Source: Chloroflexia bacterium (GTDB taxonomy: Bacteria > Chloroflexota > Chloroflexia > Thermomicrobiales > CADCWN01). From it: a stretch of DNA of 64,000 nt. The notes below the pieces were generated by a model that saw only the letters and a list, made by a program, of their open reading frames with translations, was not told the DNA's origin and did not search any database. Below, piece by piece: positions 31,221 to 60,997 of the stretch; position 1 is the stretch's first letter; the number at the start of each line of letters is the position of its first letter. A program made the translations under genes and the position numbers. The DNA is taken from contig JBDHWF010000003.1 of the NCBI GenBank assembly GCA_039810045.1, positions 1,834 to 65,833 of the forward strand, in the 5' to 3' direction.

Positions 31221-31248
31221 GATCAATGCACATTCCTGCAAATACCAG

Positions 31249-31280
31249 CAGGCCACCAACGTAGCGCGGTTGGTGGCCTG
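31249..31280 (+). terminator. Terminator-like hairpin after the CpXC gene
   Basis: A perfect 12-bp stem (caggccaccaac / gttggtggcctg) with an 8-nt loop, followed by cttag. Confidence 0.5.
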
Positions 31281-31569
31281 CTTAGACGCGGTCAGGCAAT
31301 TGGTATGGAGCTATCGTCAGGTCCCTTTGCAGAATGAATACACTTGCGCCAGCAAGATCGCCTCAGTACACTTGCGCCATCACGATACACCCCTTGGCAT
31401 ATATGCTGCAGCAGATCGCAAGGCCAGAGATTCCTGGCCTCCGAAACACTGAACCTGGCAATGACGTTTGATACTATGACTGTGTAGTGGCATCGTTCAA
31501 CGATCTGGACGTTCGACCAGGCGGCACTCATTCTCTATTAGGGGTAGTACATAGGGGATAACAAGCACT

Positions 31570-33318
31570 ATGAGTGTCCCATTTCGCCTTCGCGTCAGTA
31601 GCGGACCAAATGCCGGAGAGAGCTTCATCCTCACCGACAATGGGGCAACCATTGGGCGGCAAGATGGCAACACTATCGTTCTCGACGATAGTCGCTTATC
31701 GCGCCAACACGCCCGCATTGATCTCGGCCCTGGTGGGCTCACTTTAACCGATCTTGGCTCCGCTAATGGTACCCTGGTCAATGGGCAGCGAGTCAGTGGC
31801 ACCCGAATCTTGCAACGCGGCGACCAGATTCAGCTTGGGGAGACGACGCTGATCCTTGAAGGAGGGGCACCGGCGAACAATCGTCTCGCCACGGTGGTAC
31901 CAAAGCCCGAAAATATCGTTACCACCCCTATCTCGGCGAATGCTGCTCGCTTAGTACAGCAAGTGGGTGGGCAAATCTACCCATTGAACCAGCCCGAAAT
32001 CGTTATTGGGCGTGAGGTAGGCGCGGAAATCGCCCTTGATGATTCCCAGATATCGCGTCGCCACGCCCGCCTGACGATAACGGGGAATACCGTCACCATC
32101 GCTGATCTTGGCTCAGCAAACGGTACGTTCGTCAACGGCAGGAAGATCGCTGGCCCAACTTCATTACAAGAAGGCGATCGGATCCGTATTGGTACCCACG
32201 ATTTTCGGATCGAGGGTCTGGCGCCCCCTGCCACGGCACCGCAACTAGCAGATGCGAACGATGCCACAGTCGCAGGGATCGCGCCTTTCCCTGCCGCTAC
32301 ACCGCTCAGGCCACTCCCGCCAGCAGGCACTGCCCCCTTACCGCCGCTAGGCAACGCGCCGGGGCCACCAGCCTTTGGGGCTAACCAACCGTCATTAGCG
32401 CCTGGACAGCCCTGGAATCCTCCAGCATCGCCATACGGCTCGGTGGGGATGCCCCCACCATCACCCGCAAAACGCCGTTCAACCTCACCGATCCTGATCG
32501 GCGGTTGTGTAGTTCTCTTCCTGTTACTCTGTATCGGCGGCGGCATTGGCGGGGCAGTCGTCATCCGTAACCGTAACAACGACGCCACCCCAACCGTGGT
32601 GACGAATAGCACTGCTGTCCCAGGCGGCGGTGGCAGTAACCCCGCCCCATCACCACCAACCCCTGGCGGTGCGCTACCGCCCACCACTCAGCCAACGGCG
32701 ACGCTAGTTGCCCTCTTGCCGCCAACCACGCCCACAGCACCGGCAACGGCAACGTCAGCGCCGCTTCCCACATTGGCGGCACCGCCACCAACAACTGCGC
32801 CAACTCGCCGCCCGACCAATCAGGTCGCGCCAACGGTGGCGGCTACCCGTCCACCAGCGAACGGCAACACCACGATTACAGTTGATGCAGTGGGGTTGAC
32901 GTTCATCTTACCTACTGGTTGGACCCAGGAACGGGATGAGGCGGGCCAGGCCACCTTTCTGGCCCCAGACCAACGCGCGCAAATTACCGTACGGTGGAGC
33001 CAACAGGCCCCTGCGGGGCTGACCGCCCAACGGTTGATTCAGGATGAATTACAGCGAACTGCTAATGAAGATAGTAGCTTCGTCCCCAGCAACACCCAAA
33101 TCGGCGCGCTCACCTTTGGCGGGCACCCCGGCTATGGTTCGGAACCATATACCTACAATCTGCAAAGCGGTACGCGCCTGACTGAAGCTGACCGTGCTGT
33201 CGTACTCAGCGGGCGCGCCCAATACTTCTTTGGATTTACTGCCATTGCCACAGATTTTGATCGTTATCGATCGATCTTCGATAGTATCATCAATACTGTC
33301 GTCATTACTGGCCCTTAA
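31570..33318 (+). CDS. Double-FHA-domain membrane protein with extracytoplasmic C-terminal domain
   Basis: It has two FHA modules ('IGRQDGNTIVLDDSRLSRQHARI...GSANGTLVNG' and 'IGREVGAEIALDDSQISRRHARL...GSANGTFVNG'). A Pro-rich linker, the TM 'ILIGGCVVLFLLLCIGGGIGGAVVI', a PT-rich spacer and a ~150-aa globular C-terminus follow. Confidence 0.85.
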   Translation: MSVPFRLRVSSGPNAGESFILTDNGATIGRQDGNTIVLDDSRLSRQHARIDLGPGGLTLTDLGSANGTLVNGQRVSGTRILQRGDQIQLGETTLILEGGAPANNRLATVVPKPENIVTTPISANAARLVQQVGGQIYPLNQPEIVIGREVGAEIALDDSQISRRHARLTITGNTVTIADLGSANGTFVNGRKIAGPTSLQEGDRIRIGTHDFRIEGLAPPATAPQLADANDATVAGIAPFPAATPLRPLPPAGTAPLPPLGNAPGPPAFGANQPSLAPGQPWNPPASPYGSVGMPPPSPAKRRSTSPILIGGCVVLFLLLCIGGGIGGAVVIRNRNNDATPTVVTNSTAVPGGGGSNPAPSPPTPGGALPPTTQPTATLVALLPPTTPTAPATATSAPLPTLAAPPPTTAPTRRPTNQVAPTVAATRPPANGNTTITVDAVGLTFILPTGWTQERDEAGQATFLAPDQRAQITVRWSQQAPAGLTAQRLIQDELQRTANEDSSFVPSNTQIGALTFGGHPGYGSEPYTYNLQSGTRLTEADRAVVLSGRAQYFFGFTAIATDFDRYRSIFDSIINTVVITGP

Positions 33319-33335
33319 TAGATCAGGATTATTTT

Positions 33336-35255
33336 ATGAGTGATAGTACTACCACAGCAGATTCATTTGATAATCGTAACCAGATTGGCGCAGGGCAGGA
33401 AGAAACTGCGCACGCCCGCGGCGGCCTCACGGCAACAGCCTTTGGGCTCAGTGATATTGGCTGCCAGCGCTCGGTCAATCAGGATACCCTCGGTAATCGG
33501 CTCAGTCAGTTTCCCACCCAACTCCATGATCGGGGATTACTCTATGCCATTGCTGATGGAATGGGCGGCCATGCCCACGGCGAGATCGCCAGTGCCCTCG
33601 CGATCGACGAACTGTTCACCCGCTTCTATCAGATCGATCCCAGTCTCCCGCCACAAACAGCCCTGACCCAGGTGATGCAAGAACTGAATGCTGCGGTGCA
33701 TCAGGCGGGGCGGGATGCGGGCGGCGGATCGATGGGTACCACGCTGACGATAGTGCTCTTACGCGATAACATCCTCTATGTTGGCAACATTGGCGACAGT
33801 CGCACCTATCTAATTCGGGGCGGGAAGATCAAGCAACTGAGCCAGGATCATTCGCTGATCGGTGAGCAAATACGCAGCGGTACCCTGACCGAAGCCGACG
33901 CCCGTACCAGTGCAATTCGTAATGTGATTACCCGGGCGGTTGGCTATCGAGAAACTGTCGAACCAGAAACGTTTGCGTTTACCGTCCACCCCGGCGACAT
34001 CCTCTTACTCTGCTCGGATGGCTTGCATGGCCTGGTCGAAAATGAGGAACTGGCGCAAATCCTGAGTACACAAACGCTATCAGACGCCACAACCAACTTG
34101 ATCGCCCTGGCGCGTGAGCGTGGCGGGCCAGATAATATTACCGCACTCGTAGTGCGTGTCGATCAGCTTGGTGCAGCAGGCACGGCCAACGCCACACAGC
34201 AGATTACTGCCAGTGATAGTGACGCTGCTGATGACGCCACCAAGCCAATGCCAATGATCGCGCCAGATCGTACCGAAGAGATCCTCCTCCCAGCAACCGA
34301 AAATGAAGAGCAAGCAGCAACAACACTCCCAATGATCACCACACCAAAAGCTGCCCCCAATGCTCCAAGGCCAACAGTAGCCCCAGCGTCAATGCCCGCA
34401 CCAGCCCCAACCGTCGCCGATCTCGCCCGTCCAGCAGCCCGCCCGCCGCTCTGGCTGTTTATCGTGATCCCATTACTGTTAATCGGGCTGATTGCGGCGG
34501 GAGTGTTGCTCTTTACGCGAAACCTAAACACGACACCAACGCCTCCAGCAGTTGTTACGGTAGTGGCTACAGCAACGGTAGCACCAGCACCCTCGGCCAC
34601 GGCTGCTGTCGCCACTGCACCAGTTGTCGCTGCTGGCAGTATTGCGCCGACCGCACAACCAACTGCCACCTTACCCCCCAAAACACCACCAGCCAGCGCC
34701 CCAGCACAATCTAGCGGCGGCAGTAACCCCGCCGCCCCGATAGTACCGCGTCCCAATACTCCCTCAGCGATAGCAGCCGGGAATAGTGGGGCAACGCAAC
34801 GGATCAAGGTAAGCGGCACCGTGCGCTTTGCCGAAACACTAGCGATTCCCGCAGGATTCCCAAATGATTGGGCAGTATTGCTCTATGCACAACGTGACTT
34901 TCAGCAGCAACAGCAGGCGGCCCCAATCAAAGCACAATCCGCACTAACAGTCCTCCCCTTTCGCGAAGAGTACGGGTTTGTCCTTGATCTTGAGCTTGCC
35001 ACTGGGAATCAACAAGGAGAGCTATTCACCATTCAGCTACAGGATCTGGAAAATGACCAAATCGCCGTACTTGATCCCGGTGAGATTCGCATCGATCGCA
35101 CTGGTCGCCCAATTACTGTGCGCGTAACCAGTATTACTGAGCAACCAGAACCTCGGCCATCAGGCAACGTATCGCCGCGCACGCCAGCGATCTTCCTCAC
35201 AGACGACAAGATTCAGCGCGCTGTAGCAGTATTCCTACAGCAAGTCAGGCGCTAA
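33336..35255 (+). CDS. PP2C-family Ser/Thr phosphatase, membrane anchored
   Basis: 'YAIADGMGGHAHGEIAS', 'LLLCSDGLHG' and 'GGPDNITALVV' are present. The TM 'LWLFIVIPLLLIGLIAAGVLLF' and an extracytoplasmic A/P/T-rich region plus domain follow. Confidence 0.88.
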   Translation: MSDSTTTADSFDNRNQIGAGQEETAHARGGLTATAFGLSDIGCQRSVNQDTLGNRLSQFPTQLHDRGLLYAIADGMGGHAHGEIASALAIDELFTRFYQIDPSLPPQTALTQVMQELNAAVHQAGRDAGGGSMGTTLTIVLLRDNILYVGNIGDSRTYLIRGGKIKQLSQDHSLIGEQIRSGTLTEADARTSAIRNVITRAVGYRETVEPETFAFTVHPGDILLLCSDGLHGLVENEELAQILSTQTLSDATTNLIALARERGGPDNITALVVRVDQLGAAGTANATQQITASDSDAADDATKPMPMIAPDRTEEILLPATENEEQAATTLPMITTPKAAPNAPRPTVAPASMPAPAPTVADLARPAARPPLWLFIVIPLLLIGLIAAGVLLFTRNLNTTPTPPAVVTVVATATVAPAPSATAAVATAPVVAAGSIAPTAQPTATLPPKTPPASAPAQSSGGSNPAAPIVPRPNTPSAIAAGNSGATQRIKVSGTVRFAETLAIPAGFPNDWAVLLYAQRDFQQQQQAAPIKAQSALTVLPFREEYGFVLDLELATGNQQGELFTIQLQDLENDQIAVLDPGEIRIDRTGRPITVRVTSITEQPEPRPSGNVSPRTPAIFLTDDKIQRAVAVFLQQVRR

Positions 35256-35284
35256 ACGACAGCAACATTCTGCATATTGAGGTC

Positions 35285-37564
35285 GTGATGAGGAGCCAGA
35301 GGCGGTGGACACAGTATAGTTGCATACGGTGTGGAGTCCTGGCTATCGTCCTCTGTTTGGCCGCCTGCTCCCTCACCAACCCAACGCCTACTCCCATACC
35401 ACCCAGGGTAGCCACCCCTGGCAGCGCCCTGCCCAGCGACCCTAATCTCAAGATTGATTCGGCCTTACTGGAGATCGCTACAATCTACCAGCGCGAAGGA
35501 CAGCAGGCAGCCGAAGCCCAGGCCCGTGCTACGGGGCTATTGGATAAGCAGAATGAACTTCATCTCACCCTGATCCTGGCTGATACCAACACCCAACCGA
35601 TTGTTGATAAAGTCACCAAAAATGGTGGCAGAGTTGGTACTGTCTCCGACAATATGGTTGATATTATTATCCCGCTAAGCGTGCTCAGCACAGCTGTCAA
35701 TGAGCAGAACACTACCCTATTGCAAGAACTTGCTGCCTTGAACACAGTACGCGAGATTCAGATTACGCGGCGCGCCCAGGCAGAAGATTTGATCCTGCCA
35801 TCTACGCTATCGCCCACAGAGCGCCAGGCCCTGAGTGCCGCGCGCATTACCGAAGGGGTCGCGCTTACTGGTGCTGATAAGTGGCATGATGCGGGGATTA
35901 CCGGGCAAGGCGTCAAGGTGGGCATCATCGATATTGGCTTTGCCGGATATGAAACCTTACTCGGCACAACACTGCCACAAAAGGTGACGTTTCGCTCATT
36001 CGCTAGCGAGGAAGACGACGATGAACACGGCACAGCCGTAGCGGAGATCGTGCATGCAATGGCTCCCGACGCCGAGCTTTTTCTCTGCCCATTCGATAGT
36101 CAGGCTGGTTTTGCCCAGGCAGTGCGTTATCTGACTGATGAAGCCAAGGTACAAATCATTCAGATGTCATTTGGCTGGCATGATTCCCGTGGTGATGGCA
36201 CAGGATACACCCAAAAACAACTCGACTATGCCCGGTCGAAAGGAGTGCTACCAATTAAGTCAGCGGGCAATGAAGGGGATAGCCATTACACCGCCCTGTT
36301 CAATCCGAATAGTACGGGCCAGCACCAGTTTGCAGCGAACAAAACCCGCCTGAAAGTCTCCCAAGAGGATGGTGACATTCTGCTCTACCTGATCTGGGAT
36401 GCCTGGGACACCGAGAAAGTTGACTACAATCTTTACCTTGAAGATGAGCGTGGGACACGAGTAGCGAAATCAGAGAACGCGCAGTCAGCGAAAACGCCGT
36501 ATGAACGGATTGCCTACTCAGGCAAAGCAAAGACCAATTATTATGTTGTGATTGAGGCAAAAGGCACGCAACCAGCCAAACGTCTTGATCTTTTCGGCAA
36601 AGATACCACTGTCGAAACGATCGCGAATGGTAGTACGCCCGCGACGAGTATCTCCGCCCCAGGCGATGCCCGCAGTGCCTTCACCGTTGGCGCAACCAAT
36701 GTGAAGGATGACAAACTCGAAGTCTATAGTTCACAGGGGCCAACCCTTGATGGTCGCCAGAAGCCAGATATCAGCGCCCCCACCCGTGTCACAACTGCGA
36801 TCTATAAAGGGCGAGCATTCTTCGGCACTTCGGCGTCAACCCCGCATGTAAGCGGGGCAGCAGCGCTCGTCTTCAATGCTCAACCTGGCGCTACAGCAGA
36901 TCAGGTGCAGGCATTTCTGGTTAGTGCTGCCAAAGATGTCGATCTCCCTGGCCCAGAAAGCAGGACTGGCGCTGGGCGACTCGCCATGGGGGCCGTTGAT
37001 ACCGCCCGCACGACAGCCAACCCTGCCGCAGGCTCAGGGGGTGCCGCCTTCAACGACCCGCTTACGAGTGAACAAATGGGATTGCCCTCAACCAACGAAG
37101 GACGCTATACCAGTGCTGGTTATCTGCTCGCTCCCAATGCCAACAACCACGCTACCTGGGCGACGTATGGCACAAATTACACTGATCTTACGGTAGCGGT
37201 CACTGTCACCCTTGCTGGCGCGAGCGGAGCGGCGGGCATCATCTTCTGGCAGAGGAGTGCCGATGATTACTATCTCTTTGCCATCACCCCCAATGGCTAC
37301 TATCAAGTGACCCACTATCAGCAGGGGCAGTGGCTTACCTTGCACCCCTGGACCAAAAATACGGTGATCAGTCAGCAGCCGATCAATCGTCTACAATTGC
37401 ACATCATTGGCAGCCAGATCGATATTGGGGTCAATGACCTGGCGCTCGCCTCCGTCAAAGTCCCCACCAGCAACAATGGACGGATCGGCCTCCTGGCAGC
37501 AGCGTTCACACAACCAGGCTTTAGCGCAACATTCAGTGATCTCACGCTTGCCGCAACACCGTAG
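35285..37564 (+). CDS. S8 (subtilisin-like) serine peptidase lipoprotein with C-terminal LamG/DUF1080-like domain
   Basis: It has the lipobox 'VLCLAAC'. The catalytic triad contexts are 'VGIIDIGF' (Asp), 'HGTAVAEIV' (His) and 'GTSASTPHVSGAAAL' (Ser). The C-terminal ~190 aa ('AGIIFWQRSADDYYLFAITPNGYY...') are jelly-roll-like. Confidence 0.85.
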   Translation: MMRSQRRWTQYSCIRCGVLAIVLCLAACSLTNPTPTPIPPRVATPGSALPSDPNLKIDSALLEIATIYQREGQQAAEAQARATGLLDKQNELHLTLILADTNTQPIVDKVTKNGGRVGTVSDNMVDIIIPLSVLSTAVNEQNTTLLQELAALNTVREIQITRRAQAEDLILPSTLSPTERQALSAARITEGVALTGADKWHDAGITGQGVKVGIIDIGFAGYETLLGTTLPQKVTFRSFASEEDDDEHGTAVAEIVHAMAPDAELFLCPFDSQAGFAQAVRYLTDEAKVQIIQMSFGWHDSRGDGTGYTQKQLDYARSKGVLPIKSAGNEGDSHYTALFNPNSTGQHQFAANKTRLKVSQEDGDILLYLIWDAWDTEKVDYNLYLEDERGTRVAKSENAQSAKTPYERIAYSGKAKTNYYVVIEAKGTQPAKRLDLFGKDTTVETIANGSTPATSISAPGDARSAFTVGATNVKDDKLEVYSSQGPTLDGRQKPDISAPTRVTTAIYKGRAFFGTSASTPHVSGAAALVFNAQPGATADQVQAFLVSAAKDVDLPGPESRTGAGRLAMGAVDTARTTANPAAGSGGAAFNDPLTSEQMGLPSTNEGRYTSAGYLLAPNANNHATWATYGTNYTDLTVAVTVTLAGASGAAGIIFWQRSADDYYLFAITPNGYYQVTHYQQGQWLTLHPWTKNTVISQQPINRLQLHIIGSQIDIGVNDLALASVKVPTSNNGRIGLLAAAFTQPGFSATFSDLTLAATP

Positions 37565-37698
37565 TATTCCAATTGCCAGAAGATCAGTATACTGAGAAAC
37601 TGATGCTACGCTTTAGACGTTCAGGTAGGCAGAAGTAGACACGGCGCATATCGCAGACAGCTTTGGAATAGCGAACGAAGGAAGGGGAGCGACAGACG

Positions 37699-38508
37699 AT
37701 GGATGCATTCTTGATTGTGCAGCGTGGCGAGGACATTGGACGAAGGTTTGATCTCGACAACAATCAACTTACTATTGGTCGGGGATCAGATAACGATCTC
37801 GTCTTAAATGATCCAATGGTTTCGCGTTATCATGCCGTCCTCAAACAACAGGGGAATCGTTACTCGCTGATCGACCTTGGTAGCTCCAACCCTGTGGTCA
37901 TCAATGATCAGCCACTGGAGCCAGGGACACCCCAACAACTGACGCACCGGGATGTGGTCTTCATTGGCAAAACGGTCTTCTCATTCCAAAATCGTGCCGC
38001 TGGCATCAGCCACGCCGCATCCGCGCAGCCAGAGAAACACGAAGCAACCCAGGTTATCAGCAATCGCGATCATGACCCGTCGACACCACTGCCAGCGTCG
38101 CGCAGCAGTGCAACGTCCAGCAACACCCCTGCTGCCAGTAGGGCTACGGCACCAATGGGCCAACAGGAGGCCGGAAGCACGAAGCCCGCCGTAGTATCAC
38201 CACCAGAACGCCCAGCCCAGGAAGCAGCAACGCAGATTATTGAACCTGCCGACAAAGGGGCGAAGGAGGAGGATAACGACAAGACACTGATTGGGAGCGG
38301 GGCAACGTCCGCCCCACCGCCGCCAGTCTTCGCCCCGCCTCCACCACCAACGGCAGTGAAGTTCGACGACGAAGAAACGAATGCCTCGATCAAGATGCCG
38401 CCACCGCCACCATTCGGCACACCATCTACCCTCGGGGATAAGCAACCGAATACCGCCGACAATGATGAGGATGGCGACCTGCCAACCCAGATCATTCCCC
38501 GCCGCTAA
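37699..38508 (+). CDS. FHA-domain protein with Pro-rich disordered tail
   Basis: 'IGRGSDNDLVLNDPMVSRYHAVL...GSSNPVVIND' is an FHA domain. The C-terminal 170 aa are low-complexity (PPPP runs). Confidence 0.8.
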   Translation: MDAFLIVQRGEDIGRRFDLDNNQLTIGRGSDNDLVLNDPMVSRYHAVLKQQGNRYSLIDLGSSNPVVINDQPLEPGTPQQLTHRDVVFIGKTVFSFQNRAAGISHAASAQPEKHEATQVISNRDHDPSTPLPASRSSATSSNTPAASRATAPMGQQEAGSTKPAVVSPPERPAQEAATQIIEPADKGAKEEDNDKTLIGSGATSAPPPPVFAPPPPPTAVKFDDEETNASIKMPPPPPFGTPSTLGDKQPNTADNDEDGDLPTQIIPRR

Positions 38509-38523
38509 TCAGGGACTATTCCA

Positions 38524-38547
38524 GCGGGTCCGCAATTGCGGACCCGC
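38524..38547 (+). terminator. Hairpin after the FHA gene
   Basis: A perfect 10-bp GC-rich stem, gcgggtccgc-aatt-gcggacccgc. There is no clear U tract, so it could be an attenuator or processing element rather than a full terminator. Confidence 0.4.
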
Positions 38548-38623
38548 CAGATATTCGCTATTTCATCACCGCAGCGCGTAACTCATTTACTCAGGCGATT
38601 ACGGTTGTTGATGGGGAGTATTA

Positions 38624-41128
38624 TTGAGCATGCAAAACGCCAATCCAGCCTCGCCCTTCCCTGAAGAATCAGCGGCGATCACTGGACCACGCCTCTGTGT
38701 CGTTTCGAATGATCAAAAGGGCCGGATTTATCCCCTGGGGAATCACCTTTCCATTGGGCGCGGGGCCAATAATGATATTGTCACCGCGGATCAACGGGCC
38801 TCCAGACTCCATGCTGAAATTGATCAGATTGGGGCCAATGGTGGCTGGGTCTTGCGCGATCATGGCAGCACCAATGGCACCTATGTCAATGGTCAACCGA
38901 TCAGCCAGGTCGAGCTACGCGATGGCGATCTGATTCAGATTGGCGATTTCGCCGTGGTGGTCGAGTTTACCGCGATCAATCATCACGATGATCAGCACGC
39001 TGGCACGATGATCGGCGTCAGCATTCAGCCGCCACCAGTAGGGGCAATCCCTGATACGCTGGACCTTCGAGCGCAGACAACCGTCACCATTGGTCGTGAT
39101 CCTGGCAATACACTCGCGCTTGATCATCCCCAAATCTCTCGCTACCATGCCCGTTTAGAATTACTGCCCGATGGCAATTTGCGCGTAATTGACCTGAATA
39201 GCACCAATGGTACATTCATCAACGGGCAACAACTGCGTGGCGGCACCGCTATCCCGTCTGGTACGACGATCTCGTTTGGCCCCTTTCATCTGGTGTATCA
39301 GAACGGCCAACTACTCAAGAGTACTGATGAAGGGACAGTGCGGATCGACTGCCTTCACCTCTCGAAAACGGTAGCTGGGGGCAAAGTCCTGCTCAATGAC
39401 CTGACCTTCTCGATCTTACCGCGCGAGTTTGTTTGCCTGGTTGGTGGATCTGGGGCGGGGAAATCGACGCTGCTTGATGCCCTCAGCGGGGTGCGACCGG
39501 CAAATGGCGGCGAAGTGCGCTACAACGGGGCCGAATACTACAGCCGGATGGATGCCTACCGCAGTGCGATTGGCTATGTCCCACAAGACGATATTGTCCC
39601 GACTGAATTGCCCGTTGAAAGTGCGCTCTACTATGCAGCCAAGCTCCGGCTGCCACCCGACACAGCAGAGAGCGAGGTCAAAGCCCGCGTCGAAGAAGTG
39701 ATGGACGACCTGGGGCTCACTGCTCGCCGCGATGTACCAATCAAAAATCTGTCGGGCGGACAACGGAAACGGGTGTCGATTGGGGCCGAACTGATCTCAA
39801 AGCCAACCCTCTTTTTCCTGGACGAGCCAACCAGCGGCCTTGATCCAGGGTTGGAAGGGCGGATGATGCAGCTCCTGCGGAAGCTCGCTGATCAGGGCCG
39901 CACCGTGATTTTGATTACCCATGCCACCCAAAATGTTGACCTTTGCGACAACATCGCTTTCCTGGCACCTGGGGGCTACCTTGCCTACTATGGTCCACCC
40001 AAAGAAGCCCTGACGTATTTTGGGGCGGAGAAATTCGCTGATATCTATACCACGATTGAATCAGAAAGTGCGATGGATATCTGGCATCGTCGCTTTATGA
40101 ATACCCAACAGTTCCAGGATAATGTCGTCGCGCGCCTGACTTCGGCAGGGCTTGGCCTTAATCAAGGGAATGCCCAAAGTGCGCCAGTGGCGCTACCGAC
40201 CAGCACACAGTCGCGCCCGCCCGCCAGTCGGCGCGAATCAGGCTTCCGGCAGTTCAGAATTTTGACCAGTCGCTATTTTGAGACAGTCCGCCGCGACCGC
40301 AGCAACCTGCTGACCTTGTTGTTGGTGCAAGCACCATTGATCGCGTTACTGATCACCATCGCCTTTCGAGGCGATCTCTTTAGTACCGCGCCGTTCATTG
40401 GTGACTGGAGCAAAGGGCGCACACTGGCCTTTCTCCTGGCAATGGTGGCTGTCTGGTTTGGCACCTCCAATGCCGCCCGCGAAATCGTCAAAGAGATGGC
40501 AATGTATGCCCGCGAACGCCGGATCAACTTACGGATCGCTCCGTATATTGCTTCCAAGTTCGTTGTGCTCTTAGGAATCAGTATTTTCCAGAATATCATC
40601 CTTCTGGTGCCTTTCCTCTTTACTGGGGCGGGGCTTGGCCGCCTGCCAATGCTCTATACCTCGCTGGTCTTCGGATCAATCGCGGGGATCGCGATGGGGC
40701 TCCTAATCTCAGCGTTGGCCCCAAACCCCGACCGCGCCAGTATCCTGGTGCCCATGGTTTTGATCCCGCAGATTATCTTTGGTGGCCCCCTGATCAGTAC
40801 TGGTGGGAATATCATTGTTCGCGGGATCGCGCAGTTGATGGTGACAAAGTGGACCTGGCGTTCGCTTGGCTCTACCTTACGGGTTGATGACGTACCGACA
40901 CAACCAGTACATCTGGAGGGGTTTACCGCCGATCAGATTGCCCAACTGACTCAGCAAAATACCAACCCCAATGTGGTCAATCGTGACGGAGAGTTATATT
41001 ACATCGCGCAGGTAGGACGCGATTTCAATCTCATTCCCCCAGTCTACCTGGCAATTCTCGTAATCTTTATCATTATCTTTCTGATCATGGTCGCAGTATT
41101 TCTGAGGCGGAAGGATATCGTGCGCTAA
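38624..41128 (+). CDS. ABC transporter (NBD plus ABC-2 permease) with two N-terminal FHA domains (Rv1747-like)
   Basis: It has two FHA modules ('IGRGANNDIVTADQRASRLHAEI' and 'IGRDPGNTLALDHPQISRYHARL'). Walker A 'GGSGAGKSTLL', signature 'LSGGQRKRVSIG' and Walker B 'LFFLDEPTSGLD' are present. Six TM helices lie in the C-terminal third. Confidence 0.88.
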   Translation: MSMQNANPASPFPEESAAITGPRLCVVSNDQKGRIYPLGNHLSIGRGANNDIVTADQRASRLHAEIDQIGANGGWVLRDHGSTNGTYVNGQPISQVELRDGDLIQIGDFAVVVEFTAINHHDDQHAGTMIGVSIQPPPVGAIPDTLDLRAQTTVTIGRDPGNTLALDHPQISRYHARLELLPDGNLRVIDLNSTNGTFINGQQLRGGTAIPSGTTISFGPFHLVYQNGQLLKSTDEGTVRIDCLHLSKTVAGGKVLLNDLTFSILPREFVCLVGGSGAGKSTLLDALSGVRPANGGEVRYNGAEYYSRMDAYRSAIGYVPQDDIVPTELPVESALYYAAKLRLPPDTAESEVKARVEEVMDDLGLTARRDVPIKNLSGGQRKRVSIGAELISKPTLFFLDEPTSGLDPGLEGRMMQLLRKLADQGRTVILITHATQNVDLCDNIAFLAPGGYLAYYGPPKEALTYFGAEKFADIYTTIESESAMDIWHRRFMNTQQFQDNVVARLTSAGLGLNQGNAQSAPVALPTSTQSRPPASRRESGFRQFRILTSRYFETVRRDRSNLLTLLLVQAPLIALLITIAFRGDLFSTAPFIGDWSKGRTLAFLLAMVAVWFGTSNAAREIVKEMAMYARERRINLRIAPYIASKFVVLLGISIFQNIILLVPFLFTGAGLGRLPMLYTSLVFGSIAGIAMGLLISALAPNPDRASILVPMVLIPQIIFGGPLISTGGNIIVRGIAQLMVTKWTWRSLGSTLRVDDVPTQPVHLEGFTADQIAQLTQQNTNPNVVNRDGELYYIAQVGRDFNLIPPVYLAILVIFIIIFLIMVAVFLRRKDIVR

Positions 41129-41203
41129 CACGCTATACCACAAGCGTATCCCCCAGATACTGCGTGGCACAAGCCCAACCAGGCAGCAGTAGCTTGAGGA
41201 ATC

Positions 41204-43966
41204 ATGAGCATTGGCGAAGCTGGCCGAATCGGCCCATACGAAGTACGAAGCATTTTAGGGCGCGGTGGCTCAGCAATTGTCTATCGTGCTTATGACCCTG
41301 CGCTGAACCGTGAAGTGGCGATTAAAGCCCTGACCCTCAGGCCGAACGAAGAAGAACTCCTGCGAAAACGCTTTCAACGAGAATCGCTGGCGATCGCCCG
41401 TCTGCGCCACCCGAATATCCTCACGATCTACTCTACGGGCGAAGAATATGGCGTACCGTATATCGTCATGGAGTATTACACCGCAGGCTCCCTGACGCGC
41501 CGATTAGGCCAACCACTCGCACTCACTGACGCCGCTAGGGTAGTACAGCATATTGGATCAGCTCTTGATTATGCCCACGACCAGGGCTTGCTGCATCGTG
41601 ATGTGAAACCAGCCAATATCTTCATTGAAGGAGATCGGGCGATTCTGGCTGACTTTGGGATCGTCAAGGCGATCACTGGCGATGTGCAAACCAACCTCAC
41701 CCAAACGGGCCTCACCGTTGGCACTCCCGAATATATTGCCCCAGAACAGGCACTTGGTGAACGGCTTGATGGGCGGGCTGATCTCTACGCCCTGGCAGTC
41801 GTGCTATATGAGATGGTGACTGGCACTCCACCATTCACCGGCAGACCATTTGATGTGTTGAATGCTCACGTCGAAGGCAAAATCCCTGACCCCCGACTCC
41901 ATAACCCCCGGCTCACTGCGGCAGTGAGCCGCGTACTGTTGAAGGCCCTGGGCCGTTACCCCGAAGGGCGCTATCCCACTGGAGCGGCGCTCGCCAAAGC
42001 CCTCGATCAAGCGATCACGCAAGGGGATCTACCAGGGAGTCAGCCATTACCACTGGCCGCTGATCGTGAGGCGCGCACAAGGATTATCGATCTGCCCCCC
42101 GAGCGACTCACCGATACGCACCCAGAGGTCGTCCAGCCACGCTTGCAGGGTGCCGATACACAAAGCCCAGCAGCCATCCGCCCACTGACAGGAAATACTG
42201 ATTCTACCCTACCACCGTTGCCAGACCTGACGCCGGCATCGGGGACACCCACTATAGCGGCTCCAGAAAATCTTTCCGCTACTCCTGGTGCTACTGAATC
42301 TGTTCAGGAGTGGCAGCCGCCAACCGAAATTGCCACGCCAGCCCCAGGGATCGCCACGTCGGCTCCACCCAGCACCAATAATCCAGTGGAGCCAATCAGG
42401 GCCGTGCCATATATCGGCGCAACACCGCCTGCACCGCCCAGGCCCCCCTGGTGGCTTTTTGGGATCATTGGGGTAGTGGTCCTGCTCCTGCTAGGGGGGG
42501 GCGGTTGGTTAGCCCTACGGCAATTCAGCGCAACGACCACGCCAACCGCCACCACGGTGGCGAACGCTGGCACAGCCGTACCTACTAGCCCTGTCGTTGG
42601 TATTGCCGCCACGCCAACGAGCAAAGCTGTAGGCACACCCGCGATCAGCACCCCCGCTGATCCCGCCGCCGCCCAGATCGCCGCTGGGGATCAGGCATTA
42701 CAAGACGGCAAGTTCACCGAGGCAGTTGCCAGTTACCGCGCAGCCCTGGAAACCAACCCCAATAGCGCGGCAGCCAATCGCCAACTTGGGCTAACCCTCT
42801 GGATCTGGAATCACGAAGCAGGGGAAATCGACTATCTTGACCGGGCAACCAAACTCGATCCCAATGATGCTCTGGCCTGGGCCTATCTTTCCTTCTCGGC
42901 GGTCGATACGCATCAGGTAGAACGTGCCTATGCCGCAGCTCAACAGGCGGTACGGGTCAACCCAGAGGCGGCGGAGGGCTTTGCTGCCGTCGCAAATACG
43001 TATTTGCGTTATCCCCCAGATACCAGTGACCCTACCGCCAGCTTACACTCAGCCGAAGAAGCGATTAATCGGGCGCGAGCCCTTGACCCCAAGAACCTCT
43101 GGACCCTCTGGTTCTATTGCCAGTTCTTGCAGGAAAAAGACCAGAACCAAGAAGCCCTTGGCCCCATCGACGAAATGATTGTCCAGCGGCCCAATTGGGC
43201 AACACTCTACTATGCCAAAGGAGGGATCTATCGCAGCCTCGACCAAGATCCCGAAGCTCGCTTGTGGCAGGAGCGTGCATTAGCGCTCGATCCTGAATAC
43301 CCTTACGCGCTCACTGAAATGGGCTGGCTGGAATATGATGCAAAGAATTATCAGCGAGCAATTGAACTGTTCCAACAGGCATTGAACAATACAGACGATA
43401 CCAACAACTATGCCCACGTTGGTTTAGGGTGGACCCTGGCGGCTCTGGGTGATTATGCACACGCCATCCCCCATTGTGAACGGGCCATCCAAATCGATAG
43501 CCGCTCTCCCATCGGCTATGAATGCCTCGGCTCGGCCTATCTGGAAGGGATGAACAACTATGCGTCAGCCAACACCAACTATCGCAAGGTGATCGAACTG
43601 CGACCACAGTGGGAATCGGGCTATATCGGGATCGCCCGCGTGTATAACGCACAGAAAAACTATGCGGAGTCCGAAGCAATCTTGCGCCAGGGCCTACAAA
43701 AAATCACCACCCCACGCTATATTAACTACTGGCTGGGATTAGCACTCTATCGGCAGCAACACTATGACCGCGCCCAACCAGAATTTGAACGAGCAGTACA
43801 GCTAAAACCTGAGAATGCTGTGCTACAATATTGGCTCGGCGCAAACCTGGAACAGTTGGGGCGGTACGCCGAAGCTCGCACAGCCTATGAGCGTGCGCTG
43901 GCCCTCGACCCCAACTATCAGGATCCTAAAGACGCTTTAGAACGGCTCCGTACCCAAGGACATTGA
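41204..43966 (+). CDS. Ser/Thr protein kinase with TM and extracytoplasmic TPR array
   Basis: 'VAIKAL', 'HRDVKPANIF', 'DFGIVK' and 'GTPEYIAPE' are present. The TM is 'WWLFGIIGVVVLLLLGGGGWLAL'. The C-terminal ~430 aa are TPR repeats. Confidence 0.9.
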   Translation: MSIGEAGRIGPYEVRSILGRGGSAIVYRAYDPALNREVAIKALTLRPNEEELLRKRFQRESLAIARLRHPNILTIYSTGEEYGVPYIVMEYYTAGSLTRRLGQPLALTDAARVVQHIGSALDYAHDQGLLHRDVKPANIFIEGDRAILADFGIVKAITGDVQTNLTQTGLTVGTPEYIAPEQALGERLDGRADLYALAVVLYEMVTGTPPFTGRPFDVLNAHVEGKIPDPRLHNPRLTAAVSRVLLKALGRYPEGRYPTGAALAKALDQAITQGDLPGSQPLPLAADREARTRIIDLPPERLTDTHPEVVQPRLQGADTQSPAAIRPLTGNTDSTLPPLPDLTPASGTPTIAAPENLSATPGATESVQEWQPPTEIATPAPGIATSAPPSTNNPVEPIRAVPYIGATPPAPPRPPWWLFGIIGVVVLLLLGGGGWLALRQFSATTTPTATTVANAGTAVPTSPVVGIAATPTSKAVGTPAISTPADPAAAQIAAGDQALQDGKFTEAVASYRAALETNPNSAAANRQLGLTLWIWNHEAGEIDYLDRATKLDPNDALAWAYLSFSAVDTHQVERAYAAAQQAVRVNPEAAEGFAAVANTYLRYPPDTSDPTASLHSAEEAINRARALDPKNLWTLWFYCQFLQEKDQNQEALGPIDEMIVQRPNWATLYYAKGGIYRSLDQDPEARLWQERALALDPEYPYALTEMGWLEYDAKNYQRAIELFQQALNNTDDTNNYAHVGLGWTLAALGDYAHAIPHCERAIQIDSRSPIGYECLGSAYLEGMNNYASANTNYRKVIELRPQWESGYIGIARVYNAQKNYAESEAILRQGLQKITTPRYINYWLGLALYRQQHYDRAQPEFERAVQLKPENAVLQYWLGANLEQLGRYAEARTAYERALALDPNYQDPKDALERLRTQGH

Positions 43967-44108
43967 GCCCAGATGTAACCAATCACAGGGCTGAGGCGTT
44001 ATTGATTCCGGTGATAAAGAACGGGTGGTTGTACGGATTAAGCCTGCTATCTCCAACAAGCTTACCTTATAGAAGGCGAAGCCTACTGCACAATACAAGA
44101 AGGAATGG

Positions 44109-45431
44109 ATGACAACCGCAACACAGCCCGCCAAACCCGGCTTGAGTCGTCGCGCAAAGATCGCGCTATCAACACTCGCAATTCTCCTGATCATTGGCGT
44201 CACTGGCGGACTCTATCTGAACTATCGAGTCAATCGTTTTGTCAATACCACCTTCCGCCCCGATAATACCACCCCGCTCACCCAAAGCGGCACCACTCAG
44301 CCCACCTTGCCGATTGCCCAGGCGACAACCAGCGCAACAGCCCTATCGGGCGTTACCCCTAATCCCTCAGTGCCAGGCGCAGCCGCACCAATAACAACGC
44401 CAACCGCCGCAGTACCACCAACGGCAACCCCAATCCCGTATGGCAATTCGCCGATTATTCGTCGGCTACAAGAGGGGCAGCGCGTCAACGTACTCCTGAT
44501 CGGCTTTGGTGGCCCAGGACACGATGGTGGTTATCTGACTGACACCCTACAGGTGATGAGCTTCGAGCCGAAAACAGGCGCAGTCACCCTGATCAGTGTG
44601 CCACGCGATCTCTGGGTACTGCTGCCGCAATATCAAGGACGAGGCGGCTATTGGGGGCGAATCAATGAGGCCTATGTAATCGGCATGGGCCAGGTTGACC
44701 GCAACGATATGAATGTACCCTATAGCAAACACGACGCTGGCGGCCAAATGGCGATGAAGGCCGTTTCCGAAGTTCTGGGGATTCAACTGGACTATTGGGT
44801 TAGTCTCGACTTTGTGGGTTTTCGGCAATTCGTCGATGCGATCGGTGGCGTCGATGTGAATGTCGAAAAAACCTTTACCGACACCCAATACCCCAATAAC
44901 GACGATGCTAATGAGGATCCCAGCTATCGGACGATTCACTTTGATGCTGGTATGCAGCATATGGATGGCGCAACGGCGATTGCTTTTGTTCGCTCACGCT
45001 ATTCACCACAAGATGGCAGCGACTTTGGTCGAGCACGTCGCCAGCAATTGTTCATGAGTGCTGTCAAAGAGAAGGTCGTATCAGTTGAAGTCATCCCCAA
45101 ACTCTTCGGGATTCTCGATGCGCTCGAAGGGCATATTCGGATGAGTTTTTCCTTCACCGAGGCCAAAGATCTGCTGGGGTGGGGACAGGAACAAGCGGCG
45201 GCGAAGCGCAAATTTGCCGTCAATACTGGCGTGATCGATTCAGATCGCCTGCTCTATGGCGCAACCTCAAGTGGCGGGGCCTCAATCCTGCTGCCCCGTG
45301 CTGGCCAGGGCAACTATCGGGAGATTCAAAGCTGGGTGCGTGATCTCCTGGCAGCAAGTACGGCAACGCCGACCAGCGGTACGCCCACCCTCACGACAAC
45401 ACCAACCGTTCCTGGCACTCCCACGCGCTAA
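44109..45431 (+). CDS. LytR-CpsA-Psr (LCP) family cell-envelope glycopolymer transferase
   Basis: It has an N-terminal TM and a PT-rich linker. 'VNVLLIGFGG...DTLQVMSF...ISVPRDLWV' and 'AFVRSRY...DFGRARRQQ' are typical LCP motifs. Confidence 0.85.
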   Translation: MTTATQPAKPGLSRRAKIALSTLAILLIIGVTGGLYLNYRVNRFVNTTFRPDNTTPLTQSGTTQPTLPIAQATTSATALSGVTPNPSVPGAAAPITTPTAAVPPTATPIPYGNSPIIRRLQEGQRVNVLLIGFGGPGHDGGYLTDTLQVMSFEPKTGAVTLISVPRDLWVLLPQYQGRGGYWGRINEAYVIGMGQVDRNDMNVPYSKHDAGGQMAMKAVSEVLGIQLDYWVSLDFVGFRQFVDAIGGVDVNVEKTFTDTQYPNNDDANEDPSYRTIHFDAGMQHMDGATAIAFVRSRYSPQDGSDFGRARRQQLFMSAVKEKVVSVEVIPKLFGILDALEGHIRMSFSFTEAKDLLGWGQEQAAAKRKFAVNTGVIDSDRLLYGATSSGGASILLPRAGQGNYREIQSWVRDLLAASTATPTSGTPTLTTTPTVPGTPTR

Positions 45432-46264
45432 TGAGTACCCAGGAAACGCCAGCACTGCTGCTTGACGATCACCCCGCACTGGCCCCACTCGCGCTGGCGA
45501 TCGAGCAAGGCTGGGGCACTCTGCCAATCTCCGTGCGCGTAGTAGCCAACCTCAACGCGCACACCGTACAGGAGTATCCTGCGGCCTTGGCATGCCTGCC
45601 CCTGGCGGAATACGCCGACCTCCAAACAACTCATACGATTGTGCCAGACCTTGCGGCTGGGGATCAGCACGATGCAGGAACATTACTGGTTGCTGACCGC
45701 CGCCTGGATGAAGTCGATCAGGTCATCGTTGATCTGGGCGCAACCTCACGAACCAGCGAATTACTCACGCGGGCGACTCTGCTAAAGTTTTATGGCATCA
45801 CGGCGGTTGCCTGGACACGCGACGAACCACTACCAGAGGAAACCCAGCAAGTGATCGCGATTCGTGATGGCGGTGAAGCGCTCTACCTGCGCGATACGGC
45901 TGCCAACCGCATCCTCTCTGACTTAGGGCGGGCGTGGTTCATCTTGAGTGGATTACCCCCAGTTTCGCACCTGTTACTTGCGCCGAATAATGCGCTCACC
46001 GCTCCCTGGCTGACGGAAACGCGGGCGGCAATCCCTGATCTTCTCGCGGTAGTTGCCTCCCGCCGCCGCGAATTAAGGCGCACCCTGGCTGAACGCTATG
46101 GTGTGTCACGAGAGCTTTTACACCAATACTATAGCGGTCAATTTCTCACGCTCACTGGCGACGCCCAGAAAAGTATTCTCGCCCTTTTTCCTGAGGGGGC
46201 GTGGGAGATGAACCTCCCAACCGTATCACGCCTGAATCTTGCACCCTGGGCGAAACGCGCCTGA
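45431..46264 (+). CDS. MqnA/MqnD-family (DUF178, periplasmic-binding-fold) protein, putative
   Basis: It has a TAATG overlap with the LCP gene. 'LPLAEYADLQTTHTIVPDLAAG' and 'DLGRAWFILSGLPPVSHLLLA' resemble the chorismate dehydratase MqnA pattern. The assignment is by eye only. Confidence 0.4.
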   Translation: MSTQETPALLLDDHPALAPLALAIEQGWGTLPISVRVVANLNAHTVQEYPAALACLPLAEYADLQTTHTIVPDLAAGDQHDAGTLLVADRRLDEVDQVIVDLGATSRTSELLTRATLLKFYGITAVAWTRDEPLPEETQQVIAIRDGGEALYLRDTAANRILSDLGRAWFILSGLPPVSHLLLAPNNALTAPWLTETRAAIPDLLAVVASRRRELRRTLAERYGVSRELLHQYYSGQFLTLTGDAQKSILALFPEGAWEMNLPTVSRLNLAPWAKRA

Positions 46265-46268: not shown

Positions 46269-46835
46269 CTATTCTTCGGCGGCCCCACGCACGCGATAAC
46301 TCTTGGCTAACGCTGCATAGCGGTCTGCGCCCAGATGATGCAAAAGCTGACCATGTTCTTCCTCAGTCTGCCAGAAGCCGTCGAACGCCTGATCATCAAC
46401 CGTCATTGCCAATGGCTGACCGATAAAAAGGTCGTGGTCGCCAAGGCGAATCCGCTCGACCACCCCGCATTCAATATGGGCGAGGCATTCGGCGATCAGC
46501 GGTGGATCAACTTCGGTCGCCAGTTCCAGCGTCAGGCCCGTAATCGCAAACTTATCTTCCTCACGCCCAGAGATCATGCCGCACTGATGCGTGGCGGTGA
46601 TCAGCTCCAGGTGTGGGATATTGAGCACAAATTGCTCGGTCTTCTGGACAAACTCGTGCGTCAGCCGTCCTGGATAAATCGCCACACTCACCAGCGGGGG
46701 ATCAAGCGATACGGGCGCAACCCACGCCGCCGCCATCACATTTGGTTGGCCCCGATATTGTGATGTGAGCAACGACACTGGGCCAGGACTCAACACACGA
46801 TGCATCTGCCGCAAATCAAGAGGTTGCTTCGGCAT
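46269..46835 (-). CDS. Flavin reductase-like FMN-binding domain protein
   Basis: 'VSLLTSQYRGQPNVMAAAWVAPVS' is present and the layout is flavin-reductase-like. The ATG at 46835 has AAGGAG 6 nt upstream. Confidence 0.75.
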   Translation of the reverse strand: MPKQPLDLRQMHRVLSPGPVSLLTSQYRGQPNVMAAAWVAPVSLDPPLVSVAIYPGRLTHEFVQKTEQFVLNIPHLELITATHQCGMISGREEDKFAITGLTLELATEVDPPLIAECLAHIECGVVERIRLGDHDLFIGQPLAMTVDDQAFDGFWQTEEEHGQLLHHLGADRYAALAKSYRVRGAAEE

Positions 46836-46880
46836 GGGTACTCCTTCCCCCCACCTATCACCCAACAGGCATCGCCCAGC

Positions 46881-49230: not shown

Positions 49231-49461
49231 CACGTACTCCACACCAGCAACAGCACCGTTCCATTATCGCGATCAGCCCCTACCAGTTCAAGGCACAACC
49301 TGAAAATACGCTGATCTACGGGCAAACAAAGCAGGCGGTATAGTTTGTGCGATAATGGGAATAGAGAGGGTTGGCCCTCCGTTATCACCGATGTAGCATT
49401 CGCCTTCAGGGTGAATGTCCAATAATCAGAGCTGGCAACAGCGTAGAAGGGAGTAACAATA

Positions 49462-54122: not shown

Positions 54123-54234
54123 ACGCGGCCCTCCTGACACTTTCTTACTCCCTGTTCTCTTGCTCACGCAATGCCCCAGTCCTGCTACAGATGCTTACAG
54201 CCGACCGGTAAGCATCTCTGGCAATGCTTGTGCA

Positions 54235-55518: not shown

Positions 55519-55764
55519 CTAGGCTGAAGGGCGGCAAAGCACCACTGCCACCATCCAGCGCCTACGCCCAATTGCAGTATAGCATAGATATGTCTAGTCA
55601 CCATGCACGTCCATAGTGTTCGTACGCATTGTAACGTACACTTTCGTGGGAATCAACTGTTTTGATGGAATTTGGCGGGATTACGCTGATAGCAACCTTC
55701 TATAGCCCAACGTTTTACACGTCAGCCTCGATCAGTCACTGGAGAGTGAACGTACACTACAGAA

Positions 55765-60995: not shown

Positions 60996-60997
60996 GA

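Follow-up and report, generated by a model that had tools for sequence, protein, structure and literature searches.

A Chloroflexia bacterium (Thermomicrobiales, lineage CADCWN01; assembly GCA_039810045.1) encodes a unit of eight consecutive genes, g1 to g8, in which a kinase/phosphatase pair and three FHA proteins probably control an Rv1747-like, ABCG-type exporter that is co-encoded with outward-facing envelope enzymes. The unit lies at 31570-46264 of the window, the whole stretch of 64,000 nucleotides (nt) that was analyzed (contig JBDHWF010000003.1, positions 1,834 to 65,833), and all positions below refer to this window. By sequence comparison, the closest known system is pknF-Rv1747 of Mycobacterium tuberculosis rather than the pknB operon. 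The arrangement is new, whereas the kind of system, an FHA-ABC exporter gated by phosphothreonine (pThr), is known, and literature searches returned no description of this Chloroflexota cluster. The genes, with amino acid (aa) positions of their domains and transmembrane (TM) segments, are as follows.

31570..33318 (+), g1: 582-aa double-FHA membrane protein with FHA1 at about aa 8-97 and FHA2 at about aa 128-213; a Pro-rich linker leads from FHA2 to a TM segment at aa 308-332, and a Pro/Thr-rich stalk leads from there to an ectodomain at aa ~435-582 (nt 32872-33315)
33336..35255 (+), g2: 639-aa membrane PP2C with its catalytic domain at about aa 39-275, a TM segment at aa 372-393, a Pro/Thr- and Ala-rich stalk, and an ectodomain at about aa 480-639
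35285..37564 (+), g3: 759-aa S8 subtilase lipoprotein with lipobox LAAC, Cys28
37699..38508 (+), g4: 269-aa soluble FHA adaptor with one N-terminal FHA domain followed by a 170-aa disordered Pro/Ser/Thr-rich tail
38624..41128 (+), g5: 834-aa FHA-FHA-ABC half-transporter (start TTG at 38624 or ATG at 38630) with FHA1 at about aa 22-115, FHA2 at about aa 148-228, then the nucleotide-binding domain (NBD), then the membrane domain at about aa 540-834
41204..43966 (+), g6: 920-aa Hanks Ser/Thr kinase with a TM segment at aa 416-438 and an extracytoplasmic TPR array at about aa 485-915
44109..45431 (+), g7: 440-aa LCP (LytR-CpsA-Psr) glycopolymer transferase with a basic N-terminus, a TM segment at aa 18-37, and a Pro/Thr-rich stalk
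45431..46264 (+), g8: 277-aa protein of PF02621 (MqnA-like)

Pfam searches assign two FHA domains to g1 (146 bits), PP2C to g2, Peptidase_S8 to g3, one FHA domain to g4, two FHA domains with ABC_tran and ABC2_membrane to g5, Pkinase and many TPR models to g6, and LytR_cpsA_psr to g7. The original prediction, made from the bare sequence, had named seven consecutive same-strand genes with these domains at 31570-45431, counting one kinase, one phosphatase, and a total of five FHA domains spread over three proteins, and the open reading frames (ORFs) and Pfam matches bear this out. Its end point at 45431 was one gene short: the final base of the g7 stop codon is also the first of g8, which, judging from this overlap, belongs to the unit as its last member. 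It had also held that almost every protein is bitopic, with a cytoplasmic module, a TM segment, a stalk, and an outside domain. A hydropathy and composition script counted a single TM segment each in g1, g2, g6, and g7 and roughly six in g5, but no TM segment in g4. It also placed Pro/Thr-rich stretches (≥35% Pro + Thr) on the outer side of g1 (aa 341-450), g2 (aa 391-480), g6 (aa 441-480), and g7 (aa 41-120). The design is thus complete in g1, g2, and g6, and partial in g7, the cytoplasmic tail of which has just 17 residues, but it does not extend to the lipoprotein g3, the soluble g4, or the polytopic g5.

Like Rv1747, the exporter g5 combines two N-terminal FHA domains, an NBD, and an ABC-2/ABCG membrane domain in a single polypeptide. 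The NBD carries the Walker A (GGSGAGKST), signature (LSGGQ), and Walker B (FFLDEPT) motifs. Among solved structures, the FHA region matches Rv1747 FHA-2 best (6cah, 3e-10), followed by GarA, FhaA, and OdhI, while Rv1747 FHA-1 (6ccd) was matched at 2e-6. Of the NCBIfam models, TIGR00955 (ABCG/White) gives the best full-length match (200 bits, residues 249-726, below the equivalog cut-off). An AlphaFold2 model of the membrane domain, based on 63 homologues, has a mean pLDDT of 92.6, and its best 50 Foldseek matches in the PDB are all ABCG proteins (ABCG5/G8, ABCG25, ABCG2, ABCG1, and ABCG16; TMq 0.62-0.74), with no TarG or Wzm chain among these 50. The membrane domain of g5 models as ABCG-type and not as TarG/Wzm-type. 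Such a fold favors a lipid or glycolipid component of the envelope as the most likely cargo, and it weakens the reading in which g5 would export the polyprenyl-linked polymer used by LCP enzymes.

In an alignment with the solved FHA domains of Rv1747 (FHA-2), GarA, and FhaA, all five FHA domains of g1, g4, and g5 keep the canonical Gly-Arg, Ser-Arg-x-His, and Ser-x-Asn residues, including GR/SRxH/SxN in both domains of g1. The original prediction had counted a lack of the pThr-binding Arg, Ser, and His among the grounds for refuting it, and these residues are present in five of five domains, which are predicted to be competent for pThr binding on the strength of these residues. The FHA domain of g4 keeps the Asn but has “SSNP” where “NGT” is expected.

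The kinase g6 has the motifs VAIK, HRDVKPAN, and DFG and a TQT activation loop in place. The best solved relatives of its kinase domain are M. tuberculosis PknB (3orm/1mru, 3e-53) and PknE, while the match to the PknB_PASTA_kin model reaches 272 bits against a cut-off of 450, and only TPR is found by Pfam in the ectodomain. The phosphatase g2 retains ADGMGGH, GDSR, CSDGL, and GPDNIT, including the metal-binding Asp motifs. It aligns with Stp1 (2pk0, 7e-38), PppA, and PstP, and scores 223 bits against the Stp1/IreP model (cut-off 230). The g2 ectodomain is poorly conserved among relatives.

Short conserved Thr motifs stand in the otherwise divergent, disordered cytoplasmic linkers of g2, g4, g5, and g6. 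In the kinase, the juxtamembrane linker contains ARTRIID (aa 290-296, nt 42071-42091; A-R-T-[RL]-I-I-D across orthologues, with the variants QTMVLD and TPTLFLD in relatives), and in the phosphatase the linker contains DDATKPMPMI (aa 299-308; orthologue pattern [DE][DE]-A-x-T-[KR]-P-[MLF]). The inter-FHA linker of g5, about 30 aa long, carries AGTMIGV (aa 126-132; A-G-T-[ML]-I-G-V), in which T128 is the one Thr conserved in orthologues at ≥74% identity. The richest in such motifs is the tail of g4, with three TQ[VI]I motifs: EATQVIS (nt 38041-38061), AATQIIE (38224-38244), and the C-terminal DLPTQIIPRR (38476-38505). Three TQ[IV]I motifs arose in none of 100000 shuffles of this tail. The motif [DG]-A-T-Q-[VMF]-[IMF], located some 25-40 residues past the FHA domain, is kept even in a clade at 46% identity. 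The C-terminus, an acidic run followed by x-P-T-Q-I-[IV]-P-R-R, is conserved in orthologues and takes the form D-x-P-T-[AS]-x-[IV] in the distant clade with 46-47% identical ABC proteins. We take the sequence acidic-x-P-T-Q-I-I-P-R to be similar to the site preferences of mycobacterial Ser/Thr protein kinases. FHA domains generally prefer pT-x-x-(I/L/V), and the Thr with Ile or Val at +2/+3 in the motifs of the cluster fits this preference.

The layout of g4 resembles that of GarA/OdhI, as both are small soluble one-FHA proteins with conserved Thr motifs in a disordered extension, and g4 scores against the OdhI model and the GarA and OdhI structures. By analogy, this layout allows an intra- or intermolecular switch between pThr and FHA. 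On the other hand, the TQ motifs of g4 include C-terminal ones in place of the N-terminal ETTS motif, its tail is at least 170 aa long (up to ~800 aa in distant homologues), and the constant genomic partner of g4-type genes is an ABC exporter and not TCA-cycle enzymes.

The second adaptor, g1, ends in an ectodomain for which the AlphaFold2 model has a mean pLDDT of 88.6. Foldseek matches include CyanoP (2xb3; E 1e-7, TM-score 0.64), M. tuberculosis Apa, MTC28, LpqN, and DcrB, and the modeled ectodomain is of the PsbP/Mog1 fold. The family is tiny, with 24 clusters among 1.84 billion representatives, almost always at the C-terminus of 550-620-aa proteins, and a word-indexed protein search returned four matches only. 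The protein passes the NCBIfam equivalog for FhaB/FipA (NF049868, 143 bits against a cut-off of 125). This assignment was rejected because the score adds up two FHA-domain matches, both of them confined to the FHA part of the model. Automated annotation could wrongly call the protein FhaB.

To follow the cluster across genomes, ORFs were called in fetched loci and searched by BLASTP with domain-level queries from the window, and precomputed Pfam neighborhoods were also used. FHA-FHA-ABC homologues number more than 8000 at E ≤ 1e-20 in a protein search, with full-length copies in many phyla. A census covered 32 loci with a full-length copy (Chloroflexota, Armatimonadota, Bacteroidota, Acidobacteriota, Cyanobacteria, Actinomycetota, Planctomycetota, and others), in which a neighbor was counted if it lay within 10 kb. 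The closest named relatives are uncultured Thermomicrobiales and Chloroflexia metagenome-assembled genomes, with ABC proteins 80-81% identical to g5. Loci with the order g1 to g8 are L001 and L007, both of which have a pair of S8 paralogues, L006 and L008, whose contigs break off within g2, and L005, which has no S8 gene. L002, with a 58% identical ABC protein, keeps PP2C, S8, g4, g5, LCP, and g8, with g1 as FHA fragments only. At 46-47% identity (L003, L004, and L009), a block remains that consists of a long g4-type FHA protein, the FHA-FHA-ABC exporter, a kinase with TPR, a small ORF, and a small FHA protein.

A Hanks kinase is found within 10 kb of the exporter in 22 of the 32 loci and PP2C in 11. 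LCP and g8 adjoin the exporter only in the six closest loci, and a g3-like S8 gene does so in five of these six and in one Anaerolineae-like locus (L016). Because the core and its cross-phylum pairing persist, while linkage of S8, LCP, g8, GT4, and flavin reductase genes is limited to close relatives, the deep, selected linkage, as read from these neighborhoods, is that of the kinase (with or without PP2C), one or more FHA adaptors, and the FHA-FHA-ABC exporter. The original prediction of a same-strand phospho-Ser/Thr signaling cluster with envelope effectors, co-conserved in relatives, is thereby confirmed by synteny in L001, L005, L006, L007, L008, and, for the most part, L002. The genes that flank the unit downstream, as identified by Pfam, and the more distant division and cell wall (dcw) cluster are listed below; the flavin reductase and both GT4 genes adjoin the unit in all six close relatives.

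46269..46865 (-): flavin reductase, convergent to g8
46881..48029 (-): GT4 glycosyltransferase
48043..49242 (-): GT4 glycosyltransferase
52887-54167 (-): FtsZ
54235-55518 (-): FtsA
55765-56682 (-): FtsQ-POTRA
56719-57876 (-): Ddl
57881-58939 (-): MurB
58881-60305 (-): MurC-like ligase
60378-60995 (-): short ORF
60998-62338 (-): FtsW
62338-63837 (-): MurD

The intergenic gaps from g1 to g8 are 17, 29, 134, 115, 75, 142, and -1 nt, and the unit is bordered upstream by a hairpin and downstream by the convergent gene at 46269-46865. Two hairpins bear on its transcription.

31247..31282 (+): GC-rich hairpin with a 14-bp stem (AGCAGGCCACCAAC...GTTGGTGGCCTGCT), 3' of the CpXC gene (30630-31220)
38524..38547 (+): hairpin with a 10-bp GC stem, GCGGGTCCGC-AATT-GCGGACCCGC, in the g4-g5 intergenic region

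The former likely marks the end of the upstream transcription unit, and the 349-nt gap before g1 is likely the promoter or leader region of the g1-g8 unit. For the RNA between g4 and g5, the folding energy is -44.6 kcal/mol (z -3.9), a stability reached by none of 200 shuffles. The same gap in L001, L002, L006, and L007 also contains stable stems that are unrelated in sequence; that of L002 is made of tandem CGAACGTCGAA-type repeats forming a long palindrome. The g4-g5 hairpin is possibly a partial terminator or mRNA-stability element setting the ratio of g1-g4 to g5-g8, and there may be attenuation after g4. Scans for sigma-70 promoters (10 sites versus 9.5 in shuffles) and intrinsic terminators (14 versus 14.3) found no site in the intergenic gaps, and they are uninformative for operon structure because the counts equal those of shuffles and the gaps have no sites.

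In M. tuberculosis, the genes for the Hanks kinase PknF and the FHA-FHA-ABC exporter Rv1747 make up a two-gene operon. PknF phosphorylates two threonines in the Rv1747 linker; both FHA domains bind these phosphothreonines, and the effect on the transporter in vivo is positive (PMC3138270). Export of phosphatidylinositol mannosides has been suggested (PMC5549992), and, according to a review that cites Heinkel 2019 (PMC8573418), Rv1747 undergoes multivalent clustering and phase separation tuned by kinases. The cluster described here likewise has a Hanks kinase gene adjacent to the exporter gene, with g6 starting 75 nt after g5 on the same strand. It differs in its reversed order, with the kinase downstream of the transporter, in the large extracytoplasmic TPR array of the kinase, and in the additional genes for the soluble adaptor g4, the double-FHA protein g1, the membrane PP2C, the S8 lipoprotein, the LCP protein, and the MqnA-like protein. 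An actinobacterial homologue of the exporter (L033) has only ~32% identity to g5.

By analogy with Rv1747, the bitopic kinase g6 may sense an envelope cue through its outside TPR array, autophosphorylate on the TQT activation loop and the juxtamembrane Thr of ARTRIID, and phosphorylate the TQ motifs of g4, the linker Thr of g2, and the inter-FHA linker Thr of g5. The five FHA domains of g1, g4, and g5 would then bind these phosphothreonines and build up a multivalent complex near the membrane, through which the homodimeric exporter g5 is activated or clustered, and the membrane PP2C g2 would reverse the phosphorylated state. The exported cargo would be a lipid or glycolipid of the envelope, as the ABCG-type fold favors, and g3, g7, g8, and the nearby GT4s would be clade-specific, co-regulated envelope functions and not obligate partners of the exporter. 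The acceptor linker of Rv1747 is said to be inside the transporter itself, whereas here most candidate acceptor motifs are carried in trans by g4. A short in-cis linker in g5 with one conserved Thr, together with a motif-rich dedicated adaptor, suggests that g4 serves as a phospho-acceptor scaffold in trans.

Several points weigh against this reading. The inter-FHA linker of Rv1747 is ~100 aa long and has two acceptor threonines; the in-cis mechanism is therefore not directly transferable to g5 with its ~30-aa linker, and the g5 motif (TMIG) lacks a hydrophobic residue at +3, unlike the other Thr motifs with Ile or Val at +2/+3. L002 retains the cluster with no adjacent kinase, and L005 retains it without S8. 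The synteny of LCP, g8, and GT4 genes is confined to close relatives (ABC protein ≥58% identical), in which the flanks are likewise shared, and it may therefore reflect shared ancestry and not selection. Co-transcription of g1-g8 is plausible from gene spacing, and the strong g4-g5 hairpin could split the unit. Even for Rv1747, the cargo is a suggestion (PMC5549992).

A more specific version, which we put forward only tentatively, is a Chloroflexota-specific “in-trans Rv1747” signalosome tied to wall attachment by LCP. Here, g4 would be the scaffold, with its invariant C-terminal PTQI[IV]PRR, and g1 would bring a second outside input, as its PsbP/LpqN-like ligand-binding ectodomain would join the FHA network. 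Exporter clustering would then answer to both the TPR kinase and the PsbP-fold adaptor, and the exported material would be a glycolipid or glycopolymer.

It is somewhat more doubtful that g5 exports a polyprenyl-diphosphate-linked wall glycopolymer made by the GT4s, which the LCP protein g7 would ligate to peptidoglycan while the kinase gates export, in the manner of TagGH or Wzm-Wzt. The Pfam family PF01061 (ABC2_membrane) also covers TagG and Wzm, the LCP gene, two GT4 genes, and the exporter gene are neighbors in all six close relatives, the C-terminal domain of the S8 protein may be lectin-like, and LCP enzymes are described as using lipid-linked polymers (PMC7831098). Against this stand the ABCG-only matches among the best 50 for the g5 membrane model, the ABCG/White model as best full-length NCBIfam match, the restriction of LCP to 6 of 32 exporter loci, and a cluster in which a priming phosphoglycosyltransferase and a polymerase are not present. 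The original prediction had proposed a role in export or attachment of an envelope polymer; with LCP linkage limited to the closest clade and an ABCG-type membrane model, this role is weakly supported. Control of division and peptidoglycan synthesis by a pknB/pstP/fhaA/fhaB-type system acting on the nearby dcw genes, with the ABC, S8, and LCP genes as passengers, is unlikely. The kinase is closest to PknB and PknE, the phosphatase matches PstP in its PP2C-TM-ectodomain layout, and the FtsZ-MurD genes at 52887-63837 (- strand) end ~6.6 kb from the signaling unit in convergent orientation, with FtsZ near the cluster also in L005 and L008. But the unit has no SEDS/PBP gene, the kinase has no PASTA domain, the deepest linkage is of kinase-TPR, FHA-FHA-ABC exporter, and g4-type adaptor and not of dcw genes, and in L001 the cluster is not beside ftsZ.

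We consider it very unlikely that the genes form no functional unit and are independently acting neighbors by descent in a few close genomes. This view can draw on the flavin reductase and GT4 flanks, which are equally collinear in the same relatives, on the uninformative promoter and terminator scans, and on the missing S8 or kinase gene in single relatives. It is countered by the pairing of FHA-FHA-ABC exporters with kinase (22/32) and PP2C (11/32) genes, and with FHA genes too, across phyla, by the core kept at 46-47% identity while flanks differ, by the tight one-strand spacing with the g7/g8 overlap, and by the complementarity of FHA readers and conserved Thr motifs. Least probable, to the point of being nearly negligible, is that the cluster is a kinase/phosphatase system for anti-phage defense or other conflicts, such as PD-T4-6 or a TerY-P-like triad. 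The kinase domain does match many PADLOC PD-T4-6 models (best 272 bits), and the exporter of L016 lies amid vWA, zinc-ribbon, PP2C, and kinase genes, but the PADLOC matches are to generic kinase, subtilase, and ABC-ATPase domains only, no vWA gene, effector nuclease or toxin, or defense-island context was seen in the window, and the envelope enzymes and dcw neighborhood point to housekeeping envelope biology.

The original prediction had likened the cluster to the actinobacterial fhaA-fhaB-pstP-rodA-pbpA-pknA-pknB operon. This likeness holds for the parts, namely a PknB/PknE-like kinase with a TQT loop, a PstP-like membrane PP2C, and several FHA proteins, and for an envelope and division setting with dcw genes nearby. 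It does not hold for the rest: RodA and PbpA genes are not among g1-g8 (the nearest FtsW/RodA-family gene, at 60998-62338, is part of the separate dcw cluster), the ectodomain of g6 is TPR and lacks the PASTA domains of PknB, g1 differs from FhaA and FhaB in having two FHA domains, a TM segment, and a PsbP-like ectodomain, and it is an ABCG exporter, an S8 protease, and an LCP protein that take the place of the effectors. The pknF-Rv1747 system, which that prediction did not name, is closer. Two secretion systems were considered and rejected, namely the type VII system, by its mycosin model (TIGR03921, 58 bits against a cut-off of 279), and the type VI Fha-PpkA-PppA system (TIGR03354, 74 bits against 120); no EccC/EssC or Tss genes were found among the window ORFs scanned.

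The S8 lipoprotein g3 has a basic n-region, a hydrophobic core, and the LAAC-Cys28 lipobox, which is kept in five orthologues with a Pro/Thr-rich stretch after each. In an alignment with subtilisin BPN', it retains the catalytic residues Asp216, His248, Asn329, and Ser516, and the S8 domain has an insert of ~115 aa between aa 335 and 452. Its C-terminal domain (~175 aa) is conserved among orthologues and had zero matches in the word-indexed protein search. PF06439 is matched by three of seven orthologous C-terminal domains (best E 2e-4) and not by the window copy, and the domain weakly resembles the 3-keto-disaccharide hydrolase/DUF1080 (concanavalin-like) family. No credible Pfam match at E up to 10 was obtained for the C-terminal domains of g1, g2, and g3 or the N-terminal region of g3. 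The S8 gene is the most fluid position of the cluster. It is tandemly duplicated in L001 (3960-8886) and L007 (4809-9755), where all copies keep the lipobox and C-terminal domain, it is absent from L005, and in L002 the g3-type C-terminal domain is a separate ORF.

The protein g7 scores 132 bits against PF03816 (cut-off 24.6) and 119 bits against TIGR00350 (cut-off 62), and with its domain above threshold and outside a single N-terminal TM segment it is a predicted LCP transferase. The outside domain carries the conserved Arg (FVRSRY, FGRARRQQ) and aligns with TagV, TagU, TagT, and Cps2A, including the Arg-rich segment. In contrast to TagT/U/V and Cps2A, g7 has a long Pro/Thr-rich stalk, is coupled to an MqnA-like gene, and lies within a kinase/FHA unit that has no teichoic-acid or capsule synthesis genes. 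The protein g8, which is predicted to be cytoplasmic, matches PF02621 (MqnA/MqnD-like) at 40.7 bits (cut-off 26) and the structures of the chorismate dehydratase MqnA only remotely (E 0.0016), with no match to any NCBIfam model. Its gene directly follows the LCP gene in all six relatives, and this translationally coupled pairing of LCP and MqnA-like genes has no obvious explanation.

The neighboring GT4s may supply an exported or attached glycoconjugate. The best NCBIfam match of the pair is HpsO-like (221 bits, cut-off 575), and MshA, PimA, and PimB' are all distant. An assignment as PimA/PimB'-like enzymes, which would have linked them to the phosphatidylinositol mannoside cargo proposed for Rv1747, was unsupported, as MshA-like and sucrose-phosphate-synthase-like enzymes score above PimA/PimB'. 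Between the GT4s and ftsZ are genes for a 414-aa protein without a Pfam or NCBIfam match (49863-51107, -) and a 454-aa DUF4232 protein (51370-52734, -). Upstream of the cluster, with only the CpXC gene between, a polyprenyl-synthetase-like gene (26291-27190, +) overlaps by 4 nt a gene for a 1125-aa GAF-HD-GAF-GGDEF protein (27187-30564); the GGDEF gene was not found upstream of the cluster in L005. Further upstream is a tmRNA gene (25082-25431, +), identified by ARAGORN and Rfam (174 bits), with the tag peptide GNTEYALAA.

A different flavor of the same FHA-FHA-ABC core, with vWA, PP2C, and kinase genes (TerY-P-like), is seen in L016 (Chloroflexi bacterium RBG_16_57_11, 1-20800). The array begins with genes for FHA, zinc-ribbon-PP2C, vWA, FHA, FHA, and PP2C proteins, continues with a kinase with LysM and FGE-sulfatase ectodomains, the FHA-FHA-ABC exporter, a zinc-ribbon protein, two vWA proteins, and an unknown gene, and ends with a g3-like S8 protein that has C-terminal zinc ribbons.

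Nothing known is overturned by the cluster. It is of interest for g4, a proposed in-trans adaptor with conserved TQ motifs, for the PsbP-fold ectodomain that the transmembrane double-FHA protein g1 carries, and for its S8, LCP, and MqnA-like genes, the linkage of which is clade-specific. To our knowledge, studies of FHA-FHA-ABC exporters have been limited to Rv1747, and even there cargo and gating are not settled. Here, one putative operon lays out the circuit, in which the exporter is joined by a sensor kinase, a phosphatase that would counteract it, and two further FHA adaptors, and the short conserved Thr motifs yield testable predictions of phosphosites and FHA ligands. The cluster could help to show whether pThr-driven clustering is a general means of gating ABCG-type exporters, and it would offer a handle on how the envelope is built and regulated in the monoderm Chloroflexota, where these processes are poorly known.

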